This document shows, piece after piece, positions 54,329-64,000 of a stretch of 64,000 nucleotides of DNA. A program made the translations under genes and the position numbers. Below the pieces are notes generated by a model. The model searched no databases, was not told the origin of the DNA, and saw nothing but the letters and a program-made list of their open reading frames with translations. Origin of the DNA: an uncultured Acetatifactor sp. (lineage in GTDB: Bacteria; Bacillota; Clostridia; Lachnospirales; Lachnospiraceae); assembly GCA_949840935.1 (NCBI GenBank), contig CATKXX010000007.1:28070-92069 (forward strand). The letters run 5' to 3'. How positions within the stretch are numbered: position 1 is the stretch's first letter; each line of letters starts with the position of its first letter.

Positions 54329-55828
54329 TTATCTTCGCATGTCATTCAAAACATAGTATGTGCCTCTGGACGCTCCCTTTTTACAGATAAGGCTGTCACA
54401 GACAAGCTTATTGAGGATCACCTGCGCCCTTCTTTTCCCCACATCCAGCAGTGTCACTAATTGCCCTGACGTAATCCTGCCATTCTCCACAATATACTTT
54501 ACCACAGCTGCTTCCTGTGTGCTCATTTCGTCTTTGAGCGCATTTTGAGCGCATTTTGAGCGCATTCCGCCGCCATTGAAAAAGCAGAACACTTCCTCCT
54601 GCACTCTTCCGGTACACTCTGGAATATCCTCCAGGTTCCAGGCCATTGTATCTTCTGCCCGGTACAGATTTATCCTCAACGCGATTTCCATATCTACAAA
54701 CTCCGGCTCTGGTAATCCATACTCTTTCATCTCGCGCATCAGCTTCGGGATGCCCGTTCCCCATCCTTCCACCAGATTCATATAAGAAAACGCATGAGCC
54801 AGCGCATGATTCCTGATCTGAGAGTATCCCTCCTTCATCCGCCCTATGGTCACTCCCGGCATCAGCCCGCCCGGGGAAGTAATCTCCAGACGATTGTCGT
54901 AGACAGCCACCTGGATATGGGACGGCTGCAGGAAGCTGCAGTTCATCACTGCGTTGATGATCAGCTCACGGATACTGTCCGGGGGCAATTCATAGATATC
55001 CTGCCGGTATATTCCCTCAATCCTGGCGCCAAGGCGTATATTGCGGAGCACAAACTGAAAGGCTTCCTCCACCTGGCTCCACAGCGGCCCCTCATAATCT
55101 CTTTTATCTACAAAAATGCCTCTCGTCCTTCCCTTAAACATACCGCACTGAATCTTTGATAAAAAGACATCCTGTCCTGTGAGAAATACATAAGCGTTTG
55201 TAGGATGAATGACTCCATCCTCATCCTCAGCAAGAATCCCCCAATTCAACAGAATATTCTTTGTCACATTTTTGACGGCCTGCCTCTGTGCCTCATTCCT
55301 GCAATTTGCAAGCGCAATTTCCTTCATGTCCGTACAGAGCTGTGAGATCTCTTCATCGGAAATGCCCAGATCCCTGCGGATGACTGTATCGTAAGACCGG
55401 CCCTCCGATCCATAGTACATCTCCTGTGTCATCGAACGGTCAGCCTTTCTGGTGGTTCCGGACACCCTTATATAGACACCATTCGTAATCCCATCCGACC
55501 TGATGTAATACGGTTTCTGCTTCCCGGCGCTGATCTCCACAATGATTATGGTCCTGCCCTCTACCGTCTGCAGGTATACATCCGGGACAATCACAGGCTC
55601 ACAGCTGTCCGATATTGCATTTGTGATAGCATCCATCTCATGAAAAACAAGCTCCTCCGGTATGCCGGTTACGGCTCCCGTTTCGTCATCAATCCCAAAA
55701 ATGATCCGGCCGCCCTTTCCATTTGCAAAGGCAACAACCGACTTCATATATTTAATACTTTTGTCCGGACGCCTTACTTTAAATTCCACGTTCTTTGATT
55801 CACCATTGAGAAATTCTGCTATGGCCAT
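54329..55828 (-). CDS. AlbA_2 (Schlafen-like) / RecG-C-like HATPase / wHTH protein
   Basis: GESKNVEFK, VAFANGKGG.IIFGIDD, RELIINAV, LEITSPGGL, EGWGTGI, C-terminal winged HTH (KGASRGTYY). Confidence 0.88.
   Translation of the reverse strand: MAIAEFLNGESKNVEFKVRRPDKSIKYMKSVVAFANGKGGRIIFGIDDETGAVTGIPEELVFHEMDAITNAISDSCEPVIVPDVYLQTVEGRTIIIVEISAGKQKPYYIRSDGITNGVYIRVSGTTRKADRSMTQEMYYGSEGRSYDTVIRRDLGISDEEISQLCTDMKEIALANCRNEAQRQAVKNVTKNILLNWGILAEDEDGVIHPTNAYVFLTGQDVFLSKIQCGMFKGRTRGIFVDKRDYEGPLWSQVEEAFQFVLRNIRLGARIEGIYRQDIYELPPDSIRELIINAVMNCSFLQPSHIQVAVYDNRLEITSPGGLMPGVTIGRMKEGYSQIRNHALAHAFSYMNLVEGWGTGIPKLMREMKEYGLPEPEFVDMEIALRINLYRAEDTMAWNLEDIPECTGRVQEEVFCFFNGGGMRSKCAQNALKDEMSTQEAAVVKYIVENGRITSGQLVTLLDVGKRRAQVILNKLVCDSLICKKGASRGTYYVLNDMRR
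54533..54565 (+). repeat. Perfect 3 x 11-bp tandem repeat inside AlbA_2 gene
   Basis: (TTTGAGCGCAT)3 in the linker before the wHTH domain. Confidence 0.9.
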
Positions 55829-55979
55829 AATATTACCTCCGGATACTCTCCTCAAAGCTTATGCAATATTATCATGTAAAGTTTTCCCATCTTTTCCGCA
55901 AGCCAAGTATACCACATACATTTATTTTTGTAAATGAACGCATACCTGTATTTATAATCGTAAACGGTTATGCGGCACG

Positions 55980-57341
55980 CTACGCACAGCCTTTCAGGAA
56001 CTTATCAAACTCTGCCTTCATGTGCAGGAAATTTCTTTTCTGCCCCGGAATCAGCTTTCCCCGCTTTTCAAAAACAGTCAGCCATTCCTTTAATAAAAGC
56101 TCCTTTTCCTCCTTTACAGCATAGCTCACCAGTGCAACGAAGGAAGGTCTGTTCTCATCCGACAGGATCCTGGAGTCAATATCTTCGACCGCTTCCGACG
56201 CATCGTTCGCCATAAGCTCATACAACTCCATGTCCTCATCATCGACTTTCCCGTCTACATATTCCTCGATGATCGCCTTTGCAGTAACAGGCTTCACAAA
56301 CTCCTCCAGCAGTCCCTGAAGCATATTCAGCTTGTCTGTGATGACCTGTCTGTCCTTCGTGCTCATTTCCCTGCCAATCTCATCAAACAGCTGGCCTTTT
56401 TCATTTCTCCTGGTACTGCGGAGCGTCTTATGGAATATCCGGAGGAATTCCGCAAACTTCCTGTCATCCGCTTTTTCATCGGTTCCCATTCTGGTAAACC
56501 TGTCAAAAAGCGTCAGGAAGAGAAAGGAATCCTTCTTATTAAATATGTCCCTGATATCAGTTGTTATAACCTTCTCCAGCCTGCATATATTTTCAGCAAA
56601 CCTGTCAAATTCCTCCTCTGACGCATGATCATTAAGATATTTGCAGGCCGCCCTGGGCTGTGTCTTCCAGCTTTCAAAGTGGTTCATGCACATTATAGTC
56701 TCAACAACCATTCTCTCAGCGGCCCCCCTGGTCTTATCCTTTTCGGAATAACCGGTGCATTCCACAAAAAACCTGCTGTTCAGTATCCTTCTGATCCGGC
56801 TCGCAAATCTGTCAATATAAGTAAACGCCCTCTGATCCGTATTCATGGCAACATGGTTATTGTAACGCTTGATATACCTTGAAATCCTGGCACTGTCACA
56901 GCGCTCATGTATGACTGTCTCAATCTGATATTCATCAAATTTTTCCTTTAATTCCTCGGGGAGTTTTTCATATGTCTTATTCTTAATATTAAATACGGCA
57001 TCTTCATATGTGATATTGCCGTCCTTATCCGTCACCCTTTTCTTATAAGGAATCAAAGGGTTCTCAACGGAAGACGTAATCTTATAATTCATGTCCCTGA
57101 ATTTTCTCAGGGCCGCCGTCCTGCAGCCGCCGTCAACAATATGCAGCCTGGTATTTTCCTCCTCCCCGAGAATAACGGGAGGAATATAGTCATCTGTCAG
57201 GACGGTGACGATCAATTCGTTGATCTGCTCATTATTCCAGGCAAAATTCCTCTGTACGTCGGCATTATTATCAATATCGCCCTTCCTGTTCTTATTCAGA
57301 TACATATCTAAAGTATAAGTCTGTTTCCGTGGTCTTGCCAT
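55980..57341 (-). CDS. DUF262 (ParB/Srx-fold, GmrSD N-terminal-like) protein
   Basis: VQRNFAW, IPPVIL, HIVDGGCRT (variant DGQQR), YIKRYN; no C-terminal HNH recognisable. Confidence 0.8.
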   Translation of the reverse strand: MARPRKQTYTLDMYLNKNRKGDIDNNADVQRNFAWNNEQINELIVTVLTDDYIPPVILGEEENTRLHIVDGGCRTAALRKFRDMNYKITSSVENPLIPYKKRVTDKDGNITYEDAVFNIKNKTYEKLPEELKEKFDEYQIETVIHERCDSARISRYIKRYNNHVAMNTDQRAFTYIDRFASRIRRILNSRFFVECTGYSEKDKTRGAAERMVVETIMCMNHFESWKTQPRAACKYLNDHASEEEFDRFAENICRLEKVITTDIRDIFNKKDSFLFLTLFDRFTRMGTDEKADDRKFAEFLRIFHKTLRSTRRNEKGQLFDEIGREMSTKDRQVITDKLNMLQGLLEEFVKPVTAKAIIEEYVDGKVDDEDMELYELMANDASEAVEDIDSRILSDENRPSFVALVSYAVKEEKELLLKEWLTVFEKRGKLIPGQKRNFLHMKAEFDKFLKGCA

Positions 57342-57371
57342 TATATACCCCTCCATTGAATCTCTTTATGC

Positions 57372-57926
57372 TTACAGTACTGAAACATTTCTGTAGGAAT
57401 GAATCGCTTCACAGCACTCGGCGTATTGCTTTCCGCTTATATGTAATTCCGCCCTTATCTCCTTTGGGAGATAACCGTCAGAAAGCATCCACAGCACCTT
57501 TCTCTGAAGCCCTGAAAGCCGGTTAAGATACGAACGCATCCTTCTGCTGAAGCCCTCCTCCCGGTTCTCAAACAGCTCCCTCTCAATCGTAAAGGTGTCT
57601 GCAATCGTTTCTCCCAGAGTAACATCCTCCCCGTCGCCCACAGGTATGTCGATGGATACGGATATTCTGTCCGCCCTGCGCTTCTCCCTGTTCCTTCTCG
57701 TCATTTCCGTCTTGATCCTTTTCGACAGGCAGGAATACAAAAAAGCTTCAAAAGGCTGTGAGCTGTCATATCGACTGATTACGTCTGTAAACACCTCATT
57801 TGCAAGCGAGTAGAAATCCTCAATATCCTTATCCGGAATACCTCCAAATTTCTGTATAAGCTTATCCACAAGCCCGCGGAGCTTTCTTGCATTGTCCGCA
57901 TAATACATCTCCAGTATCTGTTCCAT
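57372..57926 (-). CDS. Sigma-70-family (sigma2+sigma4 only) RNA polymerase sigma factor
   Basis: Region 2 DIEDFYSLANEVF...YD...FEAFLYSCL..RI, VSIDIPVG, region 4 LSGLQRKVL..LSDGY...EI...LHIS; ATG 57926 behind AAGGAG. Confidence 0.85.
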   Translation of the reverse strand: MEQILEMYYADNARKLRGLVDKLIQKFGGIPDKDIEDFYSLANEVFTDVISRYDSSQPFEAFLYSCLSKRIKTEMTRRNREKRRADRISVSIDIPVGDGEDVTLGETIADTFTIERELFENREEGFSRRMRSYLNRLSGLQRKVLWMLSDGYLPKEIRAELHISGKQYAECCEAIHSYRNVSVL

Positions 57927-57998
57927 ATCGCCGTTCTCCTTCTGATCGTTCTGTTCTGTAAACAGGCTTTTTGTATTTAATTGTCGTTGATAATTATT

Positions 57999-58027
57999 AG
58001 TATAGAATGTATGTTCTTGTTTGTCAA
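57999..58027 (-). promoter_or_regulatory. Consensus sigmaA promoter for the sigma-DUF262 operon
   Basis: TTGACA (58027-58022)-N17-TATACT (58004-57999). Confidence 0.85.
58004..58017. promoter_or_regulatory. LexA (SOS/Cheo) box 1, inside promoter spacer
   Basis: AGAACATACATTCT on minus strand; one mismatch to GAAC-N4-GTTC. Confidence 0.7.
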
Positions 58028-58036
58028 TAGTTTTTG

Positions 58037-58050
58037 CGAACAAGCGTTCG
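58037..58050. promoter_or_regulatory. LexA (SOS/Cheo) box 2, just upstream of -35
   Basis: CGAACAAGCGTTCG, full match to Firmicute consensus CGAACRNRYGTTCG. Confidence 0.85.
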
Positions 58051-58269
58051 TTATTTTATTTTCTGTAAGTTCTACAGGCCTTTTGAACCATTCAAAAAGT
58101 ATAAAAGGTTTTAAGTCCTATTTTCCGTACTTGTAATGCCTTTCAGAAATGAAATCATCCCATGCATTACAAATTTGCCCGTTTCCGTCATTCAAATGCA
58201 GAAGTATATAGTACAGGGAGCAGTCAGGAGCCCCTCTTGCAAAGAATCTGAAAAGAAAGGAAGATACCG

Positions 58270-58572
58270 ATGACAGAAACATTTTACAGAACGGGAGCCT
58301 TCAGAAGGGATTTCTCCACATTCGGAGGTAGGATCTGTGCCTCCGACTTCAACAGAAAAACCACATTATCCGAGGCTGCCGCAAGAATCATGGCGGACAT
58401 GCGATTTGACAGGCAATGCAGGAAGAACAGCCCGGACAACGAAGCAGCGTCAGATGAACACGGCAGCAAAACAACGTTAGATGAACACGGCAGCAAAACA
58501 ACGTTAGATGAACACGGCAGCGAAGCAGCACCAGATGAGACCGGCAGCGAACCTGAAAAGGGAATTATCTGA
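58270..58572 (+). CDS. Small hypothetical protein with repetitive C-terminal tail
   Basis: RBS AAAGGAAG, 100 aa, ends 20 nt before the RNAP start; 9-aa DEHGSKTTL repeats. Confidence 0.7.
   Translation: MTETFYRTGAFRRDFSTFGGRICASDFNRKTTLSEAAARIMADMRFDRQCRKNSPDNEAASDEHGSKTTLDEHGSKTTLDEHGSEAAPDETGSEPEKGII
58452..58559 (+). repeat. 27-bp coding tandem repeat, 4 copies (2 identical, 2 degenerate)
   Basis: AGATGAACACGGCAGCAAAACAACGTT x2, then AGATGAACACGGCAGCGAAGCAGCACC and AGATGAGACCGGCAGCGAACCTGAAAA. Confidence 0.9.
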
Positions 58573-58592
58573 ACTGAAAGGAGGCAGCGCAA

Positions 58593-61211
58593 TTGCCCAA
58601 CATTCAATATCATCTCTATTCCGTTGATACCGGACATTTTTACAGCAGCCGCGAGAAATATTTCTTTGACATGTACTGCAAATACCGCAGAGAATGCAAG
58701 GCAATGCAGGATACGTTTACCGGGCAGGAGTTAAAGCGGCTGTACGCCCATAAAAGAGGGAAAGCCAGGCAGGCAAGACAGCGTCTGGCCACGCTGCTTT
58801 CCAATAAGACCAGGCAGAATGAAATATCAGAAGGCAGGGATCATATCCGTACTCTCAGGGAGGAGCGTATACACGATACCAATATCATATCTGCATTTTC
58901 ATCCTCGCTGAGCAGGGCAATCGGCATAAAGCAGGACGAGCTGACAGGCGACCTGATCATAGTACAGATTTATCATTTTGAAATTTTTAAGGATATATCC
59001 TTTTACGGCTTTACCTTCCGAAAGGAGCAGTACAGGTATTTTACATCCTCGGCCGGGCAAATCCGCCACAAGAAAGCCGTCTTCCTGAAAGAGACTGTAT
59101 GGAACAGGCTCATGAAGACCATCCTGTGCGGCCTCACCGTGGACAAGATCAATGCCAGGGGCGGGAATAATGTGAACAAGCATCTGGCCTACATGGCCCT
59201 CACATGCACCGCAACAGAAGAATGGGATGGATTCGACATAGACCGGGCTATCGTCATAAATGACTTTGAGACAGATGTGTACGGTACCTTCGACTATGTG
59301 GATGAGACAGACTATACGGTCACAAGGAAGACAGGGTTTGTCCCTGTTCCCCACACAGACGGCGCAGGCATGATCCTGCCCTCCGTATCCGCCAAAAACT
59401 TTATGTTCCGCGCCCCCTGGATCAAGGGGCTGCTGGGAGTCTTTGATTTTCGGAAATTCGTGGAAGCAAACGGCTGCTCCCCGGTTATCACAGACATATA
59501 CGGAAAGGAGCATGACATCATCCGGGAAGACATCCAGATCATCTTCACCAAAAGCCAGTTTAAAATGCACAAATATTATGATTCCTGGGAGGAATACAGG
59601 GAGTGTTTCAAAAAATATCACTGCAGGGCCGGCAGGTGCAATATGGAGGAGGACAGAATCAAAAATGCCAGGTTGAATTACCAGATGCTGCAGACGCTCA
59701 CGGACATATCCGACGACGAGCTCGACCTGCTTACCCACAGATCCTCAGAGCGGATCCGAAAGCTCTGTTCTTCCAAAGACACCATGCTGGAAGCTCTCGG
59801 GATCACAGCCTATAACAGCGATATGAATCCCTTCCAGAAGGCTGTCAAAATATATCCCGCCCTGCTGAAGGATTCCTTCACCAAAGATCTGCTCCGCGAC
59901 ATCAAGAACAGCCTGGTCAGAAAATACCGCAGCGGGAAGCTGGAAGTGACCGGGAAATACACCTTCCTGCTCCCGGATTTTTACGCCGCCTGCGAATACT
60001 GGTTCGGCCATATTGAAAATCCCACGGGATTACTGAAGGATCAGGAGGTATACTGCCGGCTGTACCGGCAGTACGACAGGCTTGACTGCCTGAGAAGCCC
60101 CCATCTGTACAGGGAACATGCCATCCGGATAAATACTGCTGGCCCCGCCTGCAGCAGACGGGCCGATGAGATCGGTAAATGGTTTCCCACCAATGCCCTG
60201 TACACAAGCCCCCATGACCTGATCAGCAAGCTCCTCCAATTCGATGTGGACGGGGATAAATCCCTTGTGGTTGCGGATCCGGATTTTATCAGGCTGGCAG
60301 AGCGCAATATGAAAGATATCGTTCCCCTCTACTATAACATGCGCAAGGCTGAACCGACCCAGCTGAATGCCAGAACCATCCATGCCGGGCTGAAGCAGGC
60401 CTTCGCCTGTGGGAATATCGGGAAATACAGCAACGATATCTCCAAAATATGGAACCATGACTGCTTCATTAACGGTTCCGAACAGGAGAAAAAAGAAGCT
60501 GTGGATGTCATCAAGCTGCTGTGCATGGAAAATAATTTCTGCATCGATGCCGCCAAGACCCTGTATATGCCCAGACGCCCGGAATGGTTCCGGACGCTGG
60601 TATCAAAATACACCCGCTGCAGGCTCCCGGCTTTCTTTGAACACGCAAAGGATAAGGAAGCGTCACAGCTTGCAGAGCGTAACCAGAGCACAGTGAACCG
60701 GATATACAGCAGGATCCCCAACACGCCCGTCAGCACCCGCGGGACAGACCTGGAAAGCATCGATTACCGCAAAATGATGCGGGACAGCACCATAATATGC
60801 AGCCGGGAGACAGCCCGCCTGTACGACAGCCTGAACCGGCAATACCGCTATTCCATGAACATAAGGGAGGAATATACGGATAACCTCCATTATATCGCCT
60901 GTAAACTCCGCGCAGAATTTGCCCGTACCGGATACCCGGAACCGGTCATCACAGACATGCTGGTAGAATACTTATACGGCCGGAACAAGAGATACAAGCA
61001 GCTACTTTGGCTCTGTTACGGGCAGTACATCGTAAACAATCTGGAAAGAAATGTGGGGCTGCCCGGGACGAAATGCATTCAATGCCGGGACTGCGGGGAA
61101 TGGATTGAAATCAGCAGGACGGACAGGCGCACCTGCAGATGCGGCAGCTGCAGGGAACTCTACCGCAGGGAATACGAAAAAAATAAAAAGCGGCAGCAGA
61201 GGAACAAATGA
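58593..61211 (+). CDS. YonO-like single-subunit two-barrel RNA polymerase (cellular RdRP-like fold) with C-terminal zinc ribbon
   Basis: TTG start behind AAGGAGG; TDGAGMI, FRAPWIKG, LRSPHLY, catalytic QFDVDGDK (60243-60257); C-terminal CRDC...CRCGSC. Confidence 0.88.
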   Translation: MPNIQYHLYSVDTGHFYSSREKYFFDMYCKYRRECKAMQDTFTGQELKRLYAHKRGKARQARQRLATLLSNKTRQNEISEGRDHIRTLREERIHDTNIISAFSSSLSRAIGIKQDELTGDLIIVQIYHFEIFKDISFYGFTFRKEQYRYFTSSAGQIRHKKAVFLKETVWNRLMKTILCGLTVDKINARGGNNVNKHLAYMALTCTATEEWDGFDIDRAIVINDFETDVYGTFDYVDETDYTVTRKTGFVPVPHTDGAGMILPSVSAKNFMFRAPWIKGLLGVFDFRKFVEANGCSPVITDIYGKEHDIIREDIQIIFTKSQFKMHKYYDSWEEYRECFKKYHCRAGRCNMEEDRIKNARLNYQMLQTLTDISDDELDLLTHRSSERIRKLCSSKDTMLEALGITAYNSDMNPFQKAVKIYPALLKDSFTKDLLRDIKNSLVRKYRSGKLEVTGKYTFLLPDFYAACEYWFGHIENPTGLLKDQEVYCRLYRQYDRLDCLRSPHLYREHAIRINTAGPACSRRADEIGKWFPTNALYTSPHDLISKLLQFDVDGDKSLVVADPDFIRLAERNMKDIVPLYYNMRKAEPTQLNARTIHAGLKQAFACGNIGKYSNDISKIWNHDCFINGSEQEKKEAVDVIKLLCMENNFCIDAAKTLYMPRRPEWFRTLVSKYTRCRLPAFFEHAKDKEASQLAERNQSTVNRIYSRIPNTPVSTRGTDLESIDYRKMMRDSTIICSRETARLYDSLNRQYRYSMNIREEYTDNLHYIACKLRAEFARTGYPEPVITDMLVEYLYGRNKRYKQLLWLCYGQYIVNNLERNVGLPGTKCIQCRDCGEWIEISRTDRRTCRCGSCRELYRREYEKNKKRQQRNK

Positions 61212-61337
61212 CTGTCCCCATTTTACACAGTGGAAATTCAGCCGTTATCTGCGGGCGGAATATTCCCGCCCGGAGGGAAATGGCCGTAAATAACGGAAAA
61301 TGCTTTGTGCATATAGGGGAAGGAACGGAGGCGGGAA

Positions 61338-61646
61338 ATGAACATCACACAGGATATACTGATAAAGCAGATCGCGGACAGGGAAGACATCAATACCGCG
61401 ACAGTCCAGAGACTGTTTGCGGCGGCGGAAGACATTATCTTCGACTACTTATCTTCCACCGCCGCAGCCGAGGAAGTCACCATCAAACTCTTTAACGGCA
61501 TCCGGATCCGGCGCAGCTACATAAAGGAAAAGAAATACACCAAAGGAATGTTCCAGGATCTGGACTGCCCGGAACACGTCAACACAAAAGCTTCCCTGTC
61601 CAAACACTACAACGGGCAGGTAAACCGGAGGCTGTTCGGGCGGTAA
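61338..61646 (+). CDS. HU/IHF-like DNA-binding protein (YonN-like)
   Basis: 102 aa; ITQDILIKQIA helix, IIFDYL, TIKLFNGIRI beta arm; follows the RNAP as yonN follows yonO. Confidence 0.7.
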   Translation: MNITQDILIKQIADREDINTATVQRLFAAAEDIIFDYLSSTAAAEEVTIKLFNGIRIRRSYIKEKKYTKGMFQDLDCPEHVNTKASLSKHYNGQVNRRLFGR

Positions 61647-61673
61647 CGCCCTGCGATTCCGGAAAGCCAACCA

Positions 61674-61760
61674 GTCAACACCCCCTCTGCAAGCAACAGG
61701 GGTGTTGACCCTCGCGGCATTCGTCAAGATCCTTCGGACTTTGACTCATTGCCCGCGGGA
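61674..61760. repeat. Double-hairpin palindromic element (IS200/IS605-end or REP-like)
   Basis: 11-bp stem GTCAACACCCC/GGGGTGTTGAC around TGCAAGCA, then CGCGG..GTCAA..TCC-TTC-GGA..TTGAC..CCGCG. Confidence 0.6.
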
Positions 61761-61783
61761 ATCAACAGACAGGAGGAAAACAA

Positions 61784-62353
61784 ATGGACAACACAGTTTT
61801 TACAGATTCAAACGGGCATATTGTGAGAAATTCGCCCATGAAAGATGAACACCAGCTTATCAAGATCGCCGGGAAGGCTCCTGTGTTAAAAGACATAGGC
61901 AGGATTGTCTCCGGCGACACCAATTCAAACATCCTGACCTTTGAGATCAACCGCTACTACGACGGCGTGGATCTGTATACCAAGCTGATCAAGATCATCG
62001 TCAGCAATGAGCTCGGCATATTTACGGAGAACGCGGTGAACCTGCAGTACAACAGCGAGCTCCTGCGGTTCTCCTGGATCCTGTCCGATTCCGTCACCTG
62101 TAAGAGCGGCAATGTCACAGCCGCCATCGCATTCATCGGCGCGGAGGATGGATACAAGTACGCCCTGAAGACCCTGCCCTTCACCATAAGGGTCGAAGCC
62201 TCCCTGGACATGGACTTCGACCTGCCCGACGAGGAACCCGAACCTCCCTATAAGAACTGGTTCGTGGACGTGGAAAGCAGGCTGTTTGCGCTGGAGCAGA
62301 CCTTTATAGACTTCGAGGCCGCGCCCATCGACTTTTCAGAAGGGTGGATCTGA
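61784..62353 (+). CDS. BppU-like (baseplate upper protein N-terminal domain) phage protein
   Basis: RBS AGGAGG; GDTNSNILTFEINRYYDGVDL, FSWILSDSVT..SGNV, LKTLPFTIRV pattern of Firmicute BppU-type domains. Confidence 0.7.
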   Translation: MDNTVFTDSNGHIVRNSPMKDEHQLIKIAGKAPVLKDIGRIVSGDTNSNILTFEINRYYDGVDLYTKLIKIIVSNELGIFTENAVNLQYNSELLRFSWILSDSVTCKSGNVTAAIAFIGAEDGYKYALKTLPFTIRVEASLDMDFDLPDEEPEPPYKNWFVDVESRLFALEQTFIDFEAAPIDFSEGWI

Positions 62354-62387
62354 ACACATTTCATCATTGAGAAACGGAGGAAATCAC

Positions 62388-63728
62388 ATGGCAGACCGAC
62401 AGAAACCAATCGACAGAAAATATCTCATCTCTTCCTTAAAGGGATTTGACAGAAACGTGTTAAGCAAAAAATACCTGACCCCTACCCAGACCTTCTCACA
62501 GGCCGACACAAGGTCAAACATTGCAAGCGGGGAGACCGCATCCGTGATCTTCGGCAAGATCGGCAAATGGTTTTCCGACCTGAAGGCGGTGGCCTTCAGC
62601 GGGAAATTTACAGATCTGATCATCGAGGATTCCGGCAGAGGAGCCTGGAACCGGCTGGGACTCACAAAGCTCTACGGCTATGCGGATCCTCACGCTGTGG
62701 ACGGGGCCATGACCAACGCCCTGGCCACCTCCTTCTTCGACGCCTGCCTGAAACGGGACGCCGACAACACCCCCGCCGACGACGCCCTCTACTCCCTGGG
62801 TACACCCTCCATGCGCTGGAACCGTATCTGCGCCAGACGGGCTGAAGCCGATGAAATCTCCGGCGCCGACCACTCCGGCACACAGCTCCGGCTGGGAACC
62901 TCCGGGGATTTCGCTGAAGCAGGCGGCACCAACGTAGCACTCTACTTCAAGGACAATACCTTCGGCGCAGGCATCGGCAGAAGCCTCGAGGGGTATGACG
63001 GCCCGGACAGCCGCCGGATCACCAACCAGGTAGTGACCGGACATTACAACTCCTCCTGCGTCGGCGGCGACCCCGCAGGAGGGACCAACGGCGTGGCCTT
63101 CCTCATAGGAAACGGCACCGGGGAAAGACGTTCCAACGCCATGTATGTGGACTACGGCGGCAATTCCCACCTTGCCGGCGCTCAGTACGTAAACGGCGCG
63201 GATTACGCCGAATACCTGGAATGGAAGGACAGGAACACGGAACAGGAGGATCGTGTGGGCAGATTCGTCACACTCATCGGGGACAAAATCGCCATTGCCA
63301 GGAAAGGCGACTTCATCATCGGTATCGTCAGCGGTAACCCCTCCGTCATCGGCAACGATGACTTCCACACCTGGGCCGGAAGATACCTCCGGGACGACTT
63401 CGGACGGCTGATCCTGGGAGACGTCACCACATTGGAGCCCGGTACCGGCTCCGAAATCCGCCTCCATAACCAGCCCCAGAGCAACCCCCTGTACGACGAA
63501 AGCCTCACCTATCTCCCCAGAAGCAGAAGGCCCGAATGGGACGCCGTGGGGCTTGTGGGTGTAATGCGGGTATACGACGACGGCACCTGCAGGGAGGACG
63601 GCTTCTGCAAGGCAGCGGACTACGGCGCCGCCACCGCCGCCCTGCCCGGGGAAGGCTCCTTCCTGGCCCCCGTCTACAAGGTGATGAAACGGGTCTCAGA
63701 CAACATCATAGAAATCTTCTATAAATAA
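62388..63728 (+). CDS. Phage tail spike/fibre protein with C-terminal Peptidase_G2 intramolecular chaperone domain
   Basis: Fibre-type TRSNIASGE..IFGKIGKWFSDLKAVAFSG and SLGTPSMRW; C-terminal GADYAEYLEW, GIVSGNPSVIGN, RPEWDAVGLVG..RVYDDGTC. Confidence 0.85.
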   Translation: MADRQKPIDRKYLISSLKGFDRNVLSKKYLTPTQTFSQADTRSNIASGETASVIFGKIGKWFSDLKAVAFSGKFTDLIIEDSGRGAWNRLGLTKLYGYADPHAVDGAMTNALATSFFDACLKRDADNTPADDALYSLGTPSMRWNRICARRAEADEISGADHSGTQLRLGTSGDFAEAGGTNVALYFKDNTFGAGIGRSLEGYDGPDSRRITNQVVTGHYNSSCVGGDPAGGTNGVAFLIGNGTGERRSNAMYVDYGGNSHLAGAQYVNGADYAEYLEWKDRNTEQEDRVGRFVTLIGDKIAIARKGDFIIGIVSGNPSVIGNDDFHTWAGRYLRDDFGRLILGDVTTLEPGTGSEIRLHNQPQSNPLYDESLTYLPRSRRPEWDAVGLVGVMRVYDDGTCREDGFCKAADYGAATAALPGEGSFLAPVYKVMKRVSDNIIEIFYK

Positions 63729-63742
63729 CCGGAGGGAAAATA

Positions 63743-64000
63743 ATGAGCGCATATAACCGCGAAGTGATTCTTTCAAGAACGGTGACGGGCGACGAAACGG
63801 GATTGCTTGCCGCAATCCCCTTCCCCGTTTTTTACAAATATTCCGATCCCGTGAAAGGAACCATCGACCTGGAAACGGAACTCTTTAACCCCTCGGAGGG
63901 CGTCGGTGCGACGTTTCATTTCGGGCTGATCGATAAGACCTTCCTGCTGCTGGACGCCGCCGGCAATGTCCTGGGCCATGATGCGGATTTCCCGGTCATC
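63743..64000 (+). CDS. Hypothetical protein, N-terminal fragment (runs off window)
   Basis: GGAGG RBS, ATG 63743, 86 codons without stop (MSAYNREVILSRTVTGDETG...). Confidence 0.7.
   Translation, partial: MSAYNREVILSRTVTGDETGLLAAIPFPVFYKYSDPVKGTIDLETELFNPSEGVGATFHFGLIDKTFLLLDAAGNVLGHDADFPVI

Follow-up and report, generated by a model that had tools for sequence, protein, structure and literature searches.

What does a YonO-type RNA polymerase (RNAP) gene do in a bacterial chromosome when no phage surrounds it? Chromosomal YonO-like genes of firmicutes have been called enigmatic (PMC2919709) and have been speculated to transcribe stress genes (PMC5467207). The question is raised by a stretch of 64,000 nt from an uncultured Acetatifactor sp. 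of the Lachnospiraceae (G000:C7:28070-92069, hereafter the window; the G000 assembly is 64% complete), where such a gene stands beside a divergent sigma factor gene and phage tail genes. An earlier note, made from the letters of the window, had suggested a domesticated cascade in which DNA damage leads to a tailocin-like particle, an adhesive appendage or a phage decoy. The analysis presented here indicates that the locus is a headless derivative of an SPbeta-like Lachnospiraceae siphophage, and probably a member of an F-type tailocin family that has its own RNA polymerase.

The element comprises about 33 kb plus an insertion sequence (IS), with the left half in the window and the right half on contig C30. 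Structural evidence was strongest for the tail tube, whose AlphaFold2 (AF2) model (pLDDT 90.8) had the tube of SPR, an SPbeta-like phage with a solved tube (8XKN), as best match in Foldseek (8XKN/8YGM, E 2e-14, TM 0.74). No sheath family was found among the open reading frames (ORFs) of the element scanned in Pfam and PHROGs, a scan that two small C30 ORFs fell outside. The 5' part of the gene for the tape measure protein (TMP) matches PF10145 and TIGR01760 (E 1e-20), and the hub (581 aa) was identified by homology to the phage tail protein phrog_1887 and DUF5048. A 309-aa protein was modelled (pLDDT 65) as an FN3 domain plus a Dit fold, the latter resembling 80alpha (Z 10.1, rmsd 2.8, 102 aligned), the monocin tip (Z 9.8) and p2 (Z 9.2). 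Foldseek returned nothing at E 0.001 or better for this model, which was placed only by a wide structure search; tube-initiator chains of contractile systems score like the Dit hits, so that the fold alone leaves the tail type unfixed. Fibres are represented by Phage_tail_C, a Gly-rich receptor-binding protein (RBP) and the Peptidase_G2 spike, and a holin and endolysin cassette is present. The baseplate is conserved, at 59-79% identity, and the terminal RBP is variable, giving only short matches of 40-51%. Taken together, the complete set of tube, TMP, baseplate, fibres and lysis genes speaks for a tail particle that is released rather than for an adhesive appendage, and particles from the locus likely kill close relatives.

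In the ~33-kb element, no terminase, portal, capsid, integrase or replication gene was found, and profiles for terminase, portal and capsid had no match anywhere in G000, a genome that is 64% complete. No head block stands at the contiguous site that is canonical for it, the gap between the two halves being an IS with no room for head genes, and the outer junctions have no shared word longer than 11 nt and no att-like repeat. Of an intact SPbeta-like prophage, the head, packaging, integrase, att and replication genes were thus not found, and of a gene transfer agent or PBSX-type particle, the capsid and the packaging motor. The expectation that no head, packaging, integrase or att set would appear to the right was borne out, since the right half holds tail, lysis and accessory genes only. 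Contractile-tail genes on contig C37 and phage genes on C9, C26 and C41 were ruled out as parts of the element by tblastn and position. These stretches (G000:C37:1-8000, C9, C26 and C41) are other prophage fragments, with contractile-tail baseplate genes on C37.

The joining of the contigs rests on two independent facts. C7, which runs 7.5 kb past the window end, and C30 end in an identical 21-bp inverted repeat flanked by the same 10-bp word, pointing to one IS that sits, with a 10-bp target duplication, between the gene for the tube and the ribosome-binding site (RBS) that follows. In addition, the outer flanks are the two halves of one host operon (MoxR): of 27 loci in relatives, 24 have the 478-aa gene of C30 immediately next to MoxR and one has it at a distance of about 1.2 kb, two being uninformative. 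Near-identical contigs from run X2 of a second study cover both halves, and the tail proteins of relatives match C30:18100-31741 (TMP, Dit, hub and tip/fibre genes). The element is inserted within the host operon, its right end flush against a host gene. On the left, a gene of non-phage type does follow 125-150 bp beyond the DUF262 gene, close to the 150 bp described before, but this AlbA_2/RecG-like gene had no match in the 27 relatives' loci; being absent from their empty site, it counts as a passenger, and MoxR is where the ancestral operon picks up again.

The RNAP aligns with SPbeta YonO at 42.5% identity across 97% of its length and carries the catalytic DxDGD at residue 551 (position 60243), a motif present in 33 of 33 full-length cassette RNAPs; it is the intact 872-aa two-barrel enzyme that had been described. 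A PDB sequence search with the RNAP gave no match. SPbeta YonO is a DNA-dependent RNAP that, after mitomycin C, transcribes 37 genes for structure and lysis, while its promoter was left undefined and its switch-on open (PMC5467207); transcription of the late operon by the present RNAP is inferred from this enzyme. Downstream of the RNAP stop codon lies a candidate late promoter (Table 1), its motif starting at 61304, and on C30 a similar copy stands ahead of the TMP genes. The core of this motif was recovered in 16 of 29 loci for cassettes and in 12 of 29 for phages, compared with 5% of shuffles; a k-mer search 5' of the phage RNAP genes revealed no clear motif. The motif at 58193, upstream of the RNAP operon, reached a log-likelihood of 102 in expectation maximisation (EM) vs 37-45 in eight shuffles (21 loci). 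Short tandem repeats were seen at 58453-58540, in the 3' half of the small ORF preceding the RNAP.

The RNAP ORF is split in three loci, in two of them by a 360-nt insert at one site and in one without an assigned cause. In the former two (L053 and L060), the insert stands at RNAP residue 326/327 of both yonO genes and is possibly another intron. Lachnospiraceae genomes also hold a second, distant class of YonO-like polymerase with 25-36% identity (G061:C2:50049-51815; L243-L257).

Opposite the RNAP operon, the SigH-like sigma factor and the DUF262 protein would be under SOS control. The sigmaA-type promoter and the two LexA boxes seen earlier were confirmed (11/12 consensus positions; one box perfect, one with one mismatch), and the promoter is kept in relatives. 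The sigma factor itself is present, with weak profile matches to SigH/sigma-70 under the cut-off; its start was set at 57926 rather than 58043, because the promoter falls within the mechanically called 223-aa ORF. The assignment of the GAAC-N4-GTTC box to LexA leans in part on the Bacillus consensus. The G000 genome has 24 perfect boxes, eight of which lie outside genes or at gene edges, including before recA and lexA, and because the same box precedes these two genes it is taken as the host SOS box; the assignment further draws on Table 1 of PMC8270828. A perfect box lies within 400 nt of the sigma gene in 30 of 37 cassette loci and a box that has no more than one mismatch in 35 of the 37, as counted after seven phage rows and one duplicate had been dropped (shuffles give at most 0.03 for the perfect box). 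With conserved LexA boxes over its promoter, the locus may be inducible by DNA damage.

The DUF262 protein and the sigma factor form one fused protein in several relatives, and the constant retention of DUF262 together with this frequent fusion suggests that it acts with the sigma factor. DUF262 also has a match to the NsnA model of PADLOC at E 1e-14, and the element carries an inserted IetAS pair. Both would suit an anti-phage device, in which damage or infection by an SPbeta-like phage leads to surplus or mismatched tails or to early lysis, spoiling assembly or acting as a decoy, with sigma and YonO possibly working in trans on resident phage DNA. Genes and promoter motifs are indeed common to the locus and the phages infecting the same family, and a trans-acting regulator has a precedent in monocin MpaR (PMC6872733). 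However, variable receptor-binding fibres and chaperoned spikes are kept, which an intracellular jammer would not need, and cassette genomes almost never hold a cognate headed prophage, so that we regard this device as unlikely.

The remaining ORFs that the earlier note had described were found present and uninterrupted, with RBSs, the Peptidase_G2 spike among them. Two labels stand with a qualification: the HU-like protein belongs to a widespread family but falls below the Pfam cut-off, and the BppU-like protein, without a Pfam match, owes its label to position and to homology in phage G074. All features are compiled in Table 1.

Table 1. Features of the element and its left edge; positions without a contig name are window coordinates.
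Feature	Position	Strand	Basis or remark
AlbA_2 + HATPase_c_4 (RecG-like) gene	54329..55855	-	Pfam; left-edge passenger
DUF262/GmrSD_N (ParB-like) protein, 458 aa	55980..57356	-	Pfam GmrSD_N E 1e-10
SigH-like alternative sigma factor, 184 aa	57372..57926	-	start moved from 58043
sigmaA-type promoter TTGACA-17-TATACT of sigma-DUF262	58027..57999	-	11/12 consensus positions
LexA-type box, one mismatch	58004..58017	.	covers spacer and -10
LexA-type box, perfect GAAC-N4-GTTC	58037..58050	.	sequence match
Conserved motif 5' of RNAP operon, candidate sigma-factor promoter element	58193..58206	+	EM motif, 21 loci
Small conserved ORF, family F19	58270..58572	+	5' of YonO in phages too
YonO-type single-chain two-barrel RNA polymerase, 872 aa	58593..61211	+	phrog_8308 E 4e-245
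Candidate YonO late promoter: paired boxes + TTTGTG-NN-TATA-containing motif	61241..61321	+	3' of RNAP stop
HU-like protein	61338..61646	+	Pfam E 0.011, under cut-off; family found in 77 loci
BppU-like baseplate-upper protein	61784..62353	+	named solely from position and homology in phage
Spike/fibre with Peptidase_G2 autocleaving chaperone	62388..63728	+	Peptidase_G2 E 1e-33
590-aa protein with glycosyltransferase family 2 domain	63743..64000, on to G000:C7:93584	+	start only in window
YomW/terminator-like	G000:C7:93607-94107		
YomV-like	G000:C7:94097-94816		
NifS-like, lysin, holin, 171-aa protein	G000:C7:94955-98363		
Tail tube, then IS end	G000:C7:98518-99294		
Element continuation: small Zn ORF, IetAS insert, TMP with predicted intron, 106 aa, 403 aa, Dit, hub, small tip proteins, Gly-rich RBP	G000:C30:35765-18100	-	

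Two accessory genes or gene pairs of the late region were recorded. A NifS/IscS-like cysteine desulfurase (phrog_12787) is encoded in the late operon (G000:C7:94955-96094; L001:11456-12595) and in many cassettes. A low-GC IetA/IetS pair (G000:C30:31936-35434; L178:16214-19544) is bracketed by direct repeats of 93 bp, which overlap a late-promoter-like region; little cover across this insert in run X2 is no more than a hint that it is strain-specific.

Recurrence was assessed in 55 genome loci with a YonO relative, the records being mostly of Lachnospiraceae. Forty of these, here called cassettes, have tail/lysis genes or the divergent sigma/DUF262 arm beside the RNAP without phage early or head genes; two more look headless but are of another kind, and the other 13 are either phage-like or uninformative. 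For nine elements, the sequence reached host genes at both ends (G000, G009, G061, G063, G066, G067, G069, G278 and G405), and all were headless, at ~18-42 kb. In a search of 56 whole genomes, mostly drafts, with one profile for terminase and one for capsid, each made from four phage sequences, strong matches were found in one of the 37 genomes bearing the sigma/DUF262 arm vs 8/10 and 7/10 of phage-type genomes; portal was sought only in G000 and in the locus maps. An even sample of 400 family genomes (at least 90% complete) yielded 26 with any YonO match, eight of them full-length at 47% or more. Six of the eight were mapped as cassettes, two repeating known loci, and the other two lay at contig ends. 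In three stretches (L016-L017, L018-L019 and L167-L169), two tube/TMP/baseplate sets of different phage types are stacked in one locus. A further locus, in a Paenibacillus record (G070; L173-L174), has MrpR-like and DndB-like genes on the left, followed by YonO, HU, a Dit-like gene, an amidase and many fibre/SPRY genes; genes for head, tube or TMP were not recognised there.

The many insertion sites, the insertion inside an operon and the tyrosine recombinase that ends two of the nine complete elements (G061 and G278) bring to mind a helper-dependent mobile element, or free tails used by tail-less capsid-forming elements. The tail-donor idea stems from work on capsid-forming phage-inducible chromosomal islands (PICIs). 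Short cassette branches between species, suggesting recent exchange, would agree with either version. The G000 element, however, has no integrase and no junction repeat, a recombinase also follows the fibre genes in phage G071 and may therefore be inherited, and codon amelioration indicates long residence; such a mobile or donor role is very improbable.

Codon usage of the cassette genes is shifted to that of the host. The GC content at third codon positions (GC3) was 0.66 for the RNAP and 0.61 for host genes, in line with the host-like usage that the earlier note had judged by eye, vs 0.23-0.25 for the RNAPs of phages G071 and G074 and 0.17-0.29 for phage RNAPs of the same clade. Over 27 loci, in which kin are not independent, cassette RNAP GC3 tracks host flank GC (r 0.8). 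The cassette genes are under purifying selection: in a nine-genome clade (pairwise medians; pairs kept if 0.05<dS<1.5 and with at least 60 codons), the median dN/dS was 0.084-0.134 in eight cassette families vs 0.008-0.098 in five host flank families, well below 1 as the earlier note had asked. Tube and YomV-like genes gave 0.09-0.10, and the lysin gene was equally constrained. Between species sharing one locus, dN/dS was ~0.1 at a dS of 0.35-0.86.

These values bear on two further explanations. The loci might be decaying prophage remnants without function, caught mid-deletion, as their many sites, polyphyly among phages and patchy presence would allow; L028, which has additional early genes and an RNAP of phage-like type, appears as a young intermediate, and loss of head and integrase genes is general in domesticated proviruses (PMC13626063). 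Decay is nevertheless hard to reconcile with frames left intact through a GC3 shift from ~0.25 to 0.66-0.75, with the low dN/dS (~0.1) between species sharing the locus, with DxDGD kept throughout, and with the same regulatory and tail modules and conserved LexA boxes each time, which makes it a very unlikely account. Alternatively, SOS might trigger altruistic lysis, releasing extracellular DNA or vesicles, or adhesion, with tails as by-products or as a means of attaching to mucus or to other cells. The genes for holin, lysin and the 171-aa protein belong to the most constant ones, glycosyltransferase and carbohydrate-binding domains are present, and in G070, where neither a tube nor a TMP gene was recognised, YonO is kept together with many fibres and an amidase. 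Yet tube and YomV-like genes are constrained as much as the lysin, and long TMPs and baseplates are kept in complete elements, so that lysis or adhesion as the primary role is rather improbable.

The source of the element is indicated by related Lachnospiraceae phages of 130-170 kb, which have the same modules plus heads. Like the SPbeta late module, phages G071-G075 share with the locus YonO, the HU-like protein, YomW/YomV-like proteins, the SPR-like tube fold and the late order; in G071, G073 and G074, however, terminase, portal, capsid and neck genes stand between HU/BppU and YomW. In four of five phage records, sigma homologues lie divergently 30-46 kb from yonO, with DUF262 adjoining. This spacing, like terminase, portal, capsid and integrase, has been deleted here. 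A LexA-type box was found 1.0-1.3 kb 5' of sigma in six of 11 phage loci. Because phages hold sigma, DUF262 and the box together, the SOS gate was inherited from the phage; the regulatory arm proposed earlier is present but was not newly recruited. The sigma-YonO pairing is not universal in the phages with the closest sigma factors, since YonO was without a match in four of five records and had just a distant match in the fifth.

In a quick tree of 35 RNAP rows, cassette and phage RNAPs interleave, with seven label changes, at least six of them forced by well-supported branches. A single origin of the cassette RNAPs was ruled out (monophyly, approximately unbiased test, p-AU 2e-62; 16 vs 12 rows, picked after the first tree). 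At least six changes were found for DUF262 and at least three for sigma. L028, which retains the extra early genes, has an RNAP adjoining that of phage G074. Either there were several separate reductions, or modules are still being exchanged between an old cassette and live phages; either origin implies selection for this exact gene subset.

The TMP gene is interrupted at a conserved site. The G000 insert of 1525 nt (C30:30380-28856; L178:12966-14490) follows a 5' exon ending in U, ends in G and leaves both exons in frame; it has a P7 pairing and a fold z of -3.5, and splicing of this putative group I intron is predicted to give a TMP of 1845 aa. A second intron class was recognised in five loci, in which 36/36 hand-assigned pairs hold (few, related sequences), with three compensatory changes (P3, P7 and one hairpin). 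A terminal G ahead of the conserved 3' exon was seen in seven of 12 other loci, the remaining five not being placed by that motif. The Rfam model Intron_gpI gave no gathering-level match, with none in G000 at E up to 10 and 12 bits (E 2.3) in G009. That the split TMP is two genes was ruled out, as phage G071 and G033 have no start codon ahead of the conserved 3' part. Predicted introns of several classes at the TMP site, missed by Rfam, were also noted in L016, L017, L018, L019, L022, L070, L158, L162, L182 and L186. Group I introns are known in prophage TMP genes of the Bacillus cereus group, likewise as in-frame insertions with an early stop and with different introns at one site (PMC2504315). 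There, homing endonucleases are encoded, whereas the inserts here carry small antisense genes for Zn-ribbon or membrane proteins, the Zn-ribbon types in nine cassettes and often duplicated. In G278 (L264:17700-L265:8300), about 12 small antisense genes of two paralogous families stand in tandem just before the TMP gene, an array that looks like an orphan-immunity array.

From these parts, the following course may be proposed for the tailocin. DNA damage would cause LexA to be cleaved and sigma and DUF262 to be transcribed; sigma, joined to the core RNAP of the host, would transcribe the divergent yonO operon; and YonO would then transcribe the tail and lysis genes from the motif 3' of its own gene and from the second copy before the TMP genes. 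Splicing of the group I intron would give a TMP of ~1845 aa, and headless tails would assemble and be released by holin and lysin, their fibres binding related strains and the TMP depolarising their membranes. The antisense small intron genes may give immunity, which is the weakest step.

Among known systems, F-pyocins of Pseudomonas aeruginosa use host RNAP under PrtR/PrtN control. They are likewise non-contractile tailocins, although of lambda-like origin and from a Gram-negative host. Their terminator cap is reported to be dispensable for killing (bioRxiv 10.64898/2026.02.24.707460), which the loss of YomW in many cassettes fits. Closer in host type are the monocins, also from a Gram-positive organism, with regulatory, tail and holin-lysin genes, no capsid, excision or replication functions, SOS induction (to which LexA boxes point here), and a terminator, tube, TMP, Dit, hub and fibres (PMC11830787, PMC6872733). 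They differ in their TP901-1-like origin, the CI-like repressor with MpaR and vertical descent across Listeria, whereas the present locus combines an SPbeta-like source, the proposed LexA box-sigma-YonO chain, a length of ~18-42 kb, a much longer, intron-split TMP, and multiple sites and origins. Efagin of Enterococcus faecalis, too, is a chromosomal headless tail cluster with a variable targeting domain, and it kills related enterococci, an ability that the present locus may share; at 14.6 kb it is species core at one site, and no RNA polymerase is mentioned in the part of its description available (bioRxiv 10.64898/2025.12.13.693970). By every sequence test available, the present locus would behave as an F-type tailocin, its membership being judged on its genes.

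Several observations weigh against this assignment. Monocin and efagin are species-wide at one site, unlike the cassette, which is patchy: close YonO relatives occur in four of 36 genus relatives and eight of 400 family genomes, and the site is empty in the three relatives that are closest by flank gene. Under a strict criterion, 40 loci fall into about 30 left-flank neighbourhoods, the largest spanning seven species. Within the clade sharing a locus, cassette trees match the host-flank tree only in part. YomW is missing from many cassettes, two have no tube gene in the stretch examined, G066 and G278 have no DUF262 match, and in G009 the arm is on another contig. The arm-bearing genome G158 has terminase and capsid matches, on small separate contigs; the G000 assembly is only 64% complete, and its late region is interrupted by the IS and the IetAS pair. 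Antisense genes showed no clean co-variation with the TMP N-terminus. Of what marks a stable locus, selection and amelioration are present, and one locus is common to seven species; the ~30 neighbourhoods and the empty sites in close relatives speak against it. The earlier idea of a domesticated cassette at a shared locus holds for the low dN/dS, the ameliorated codons and the up to seven species, but not for one site or for gene trees congruent with a single origin.

The literature search covered few subscription papers and no supplements, whose provirus or tailocin survey tables may include these loci, and in it no paper was found that describes a YonO-driven headless tail locus. If the tailocin assignment is true, many firmicute YonO-like genes would gain a concrete context. 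It would also offer a natural minimal system for the switch-on and promoter of YonO, with sigma, the 5' motif and the late motif as direct predictions, and the self-contained damage-inducible pair of RNAP and promoter may serve as an expression tool. Repeated reduction to one plan, together with the L028 intermediate, makes a tractable case of prophage domestication. For the Lachnospiraceae, a dominant gut family, a candidate family of narrow-spectrum antibacterials emerges. A wider picture, possible but doubtful, under which the loci would form the first class of tailocins to have an RNA polymerase of their own and many "orphan" chromosomal YonO genes would be explained, is that members of the family have repeatedly and independently turned large SPbeta-like phages into tail weapons, each time keeping the LexA promoter, sigma-DUF262, YonO and the late operon, that they kill kin through the TMP, and that they stockpile antisense immunity genes in or beside its self-splicing intron.

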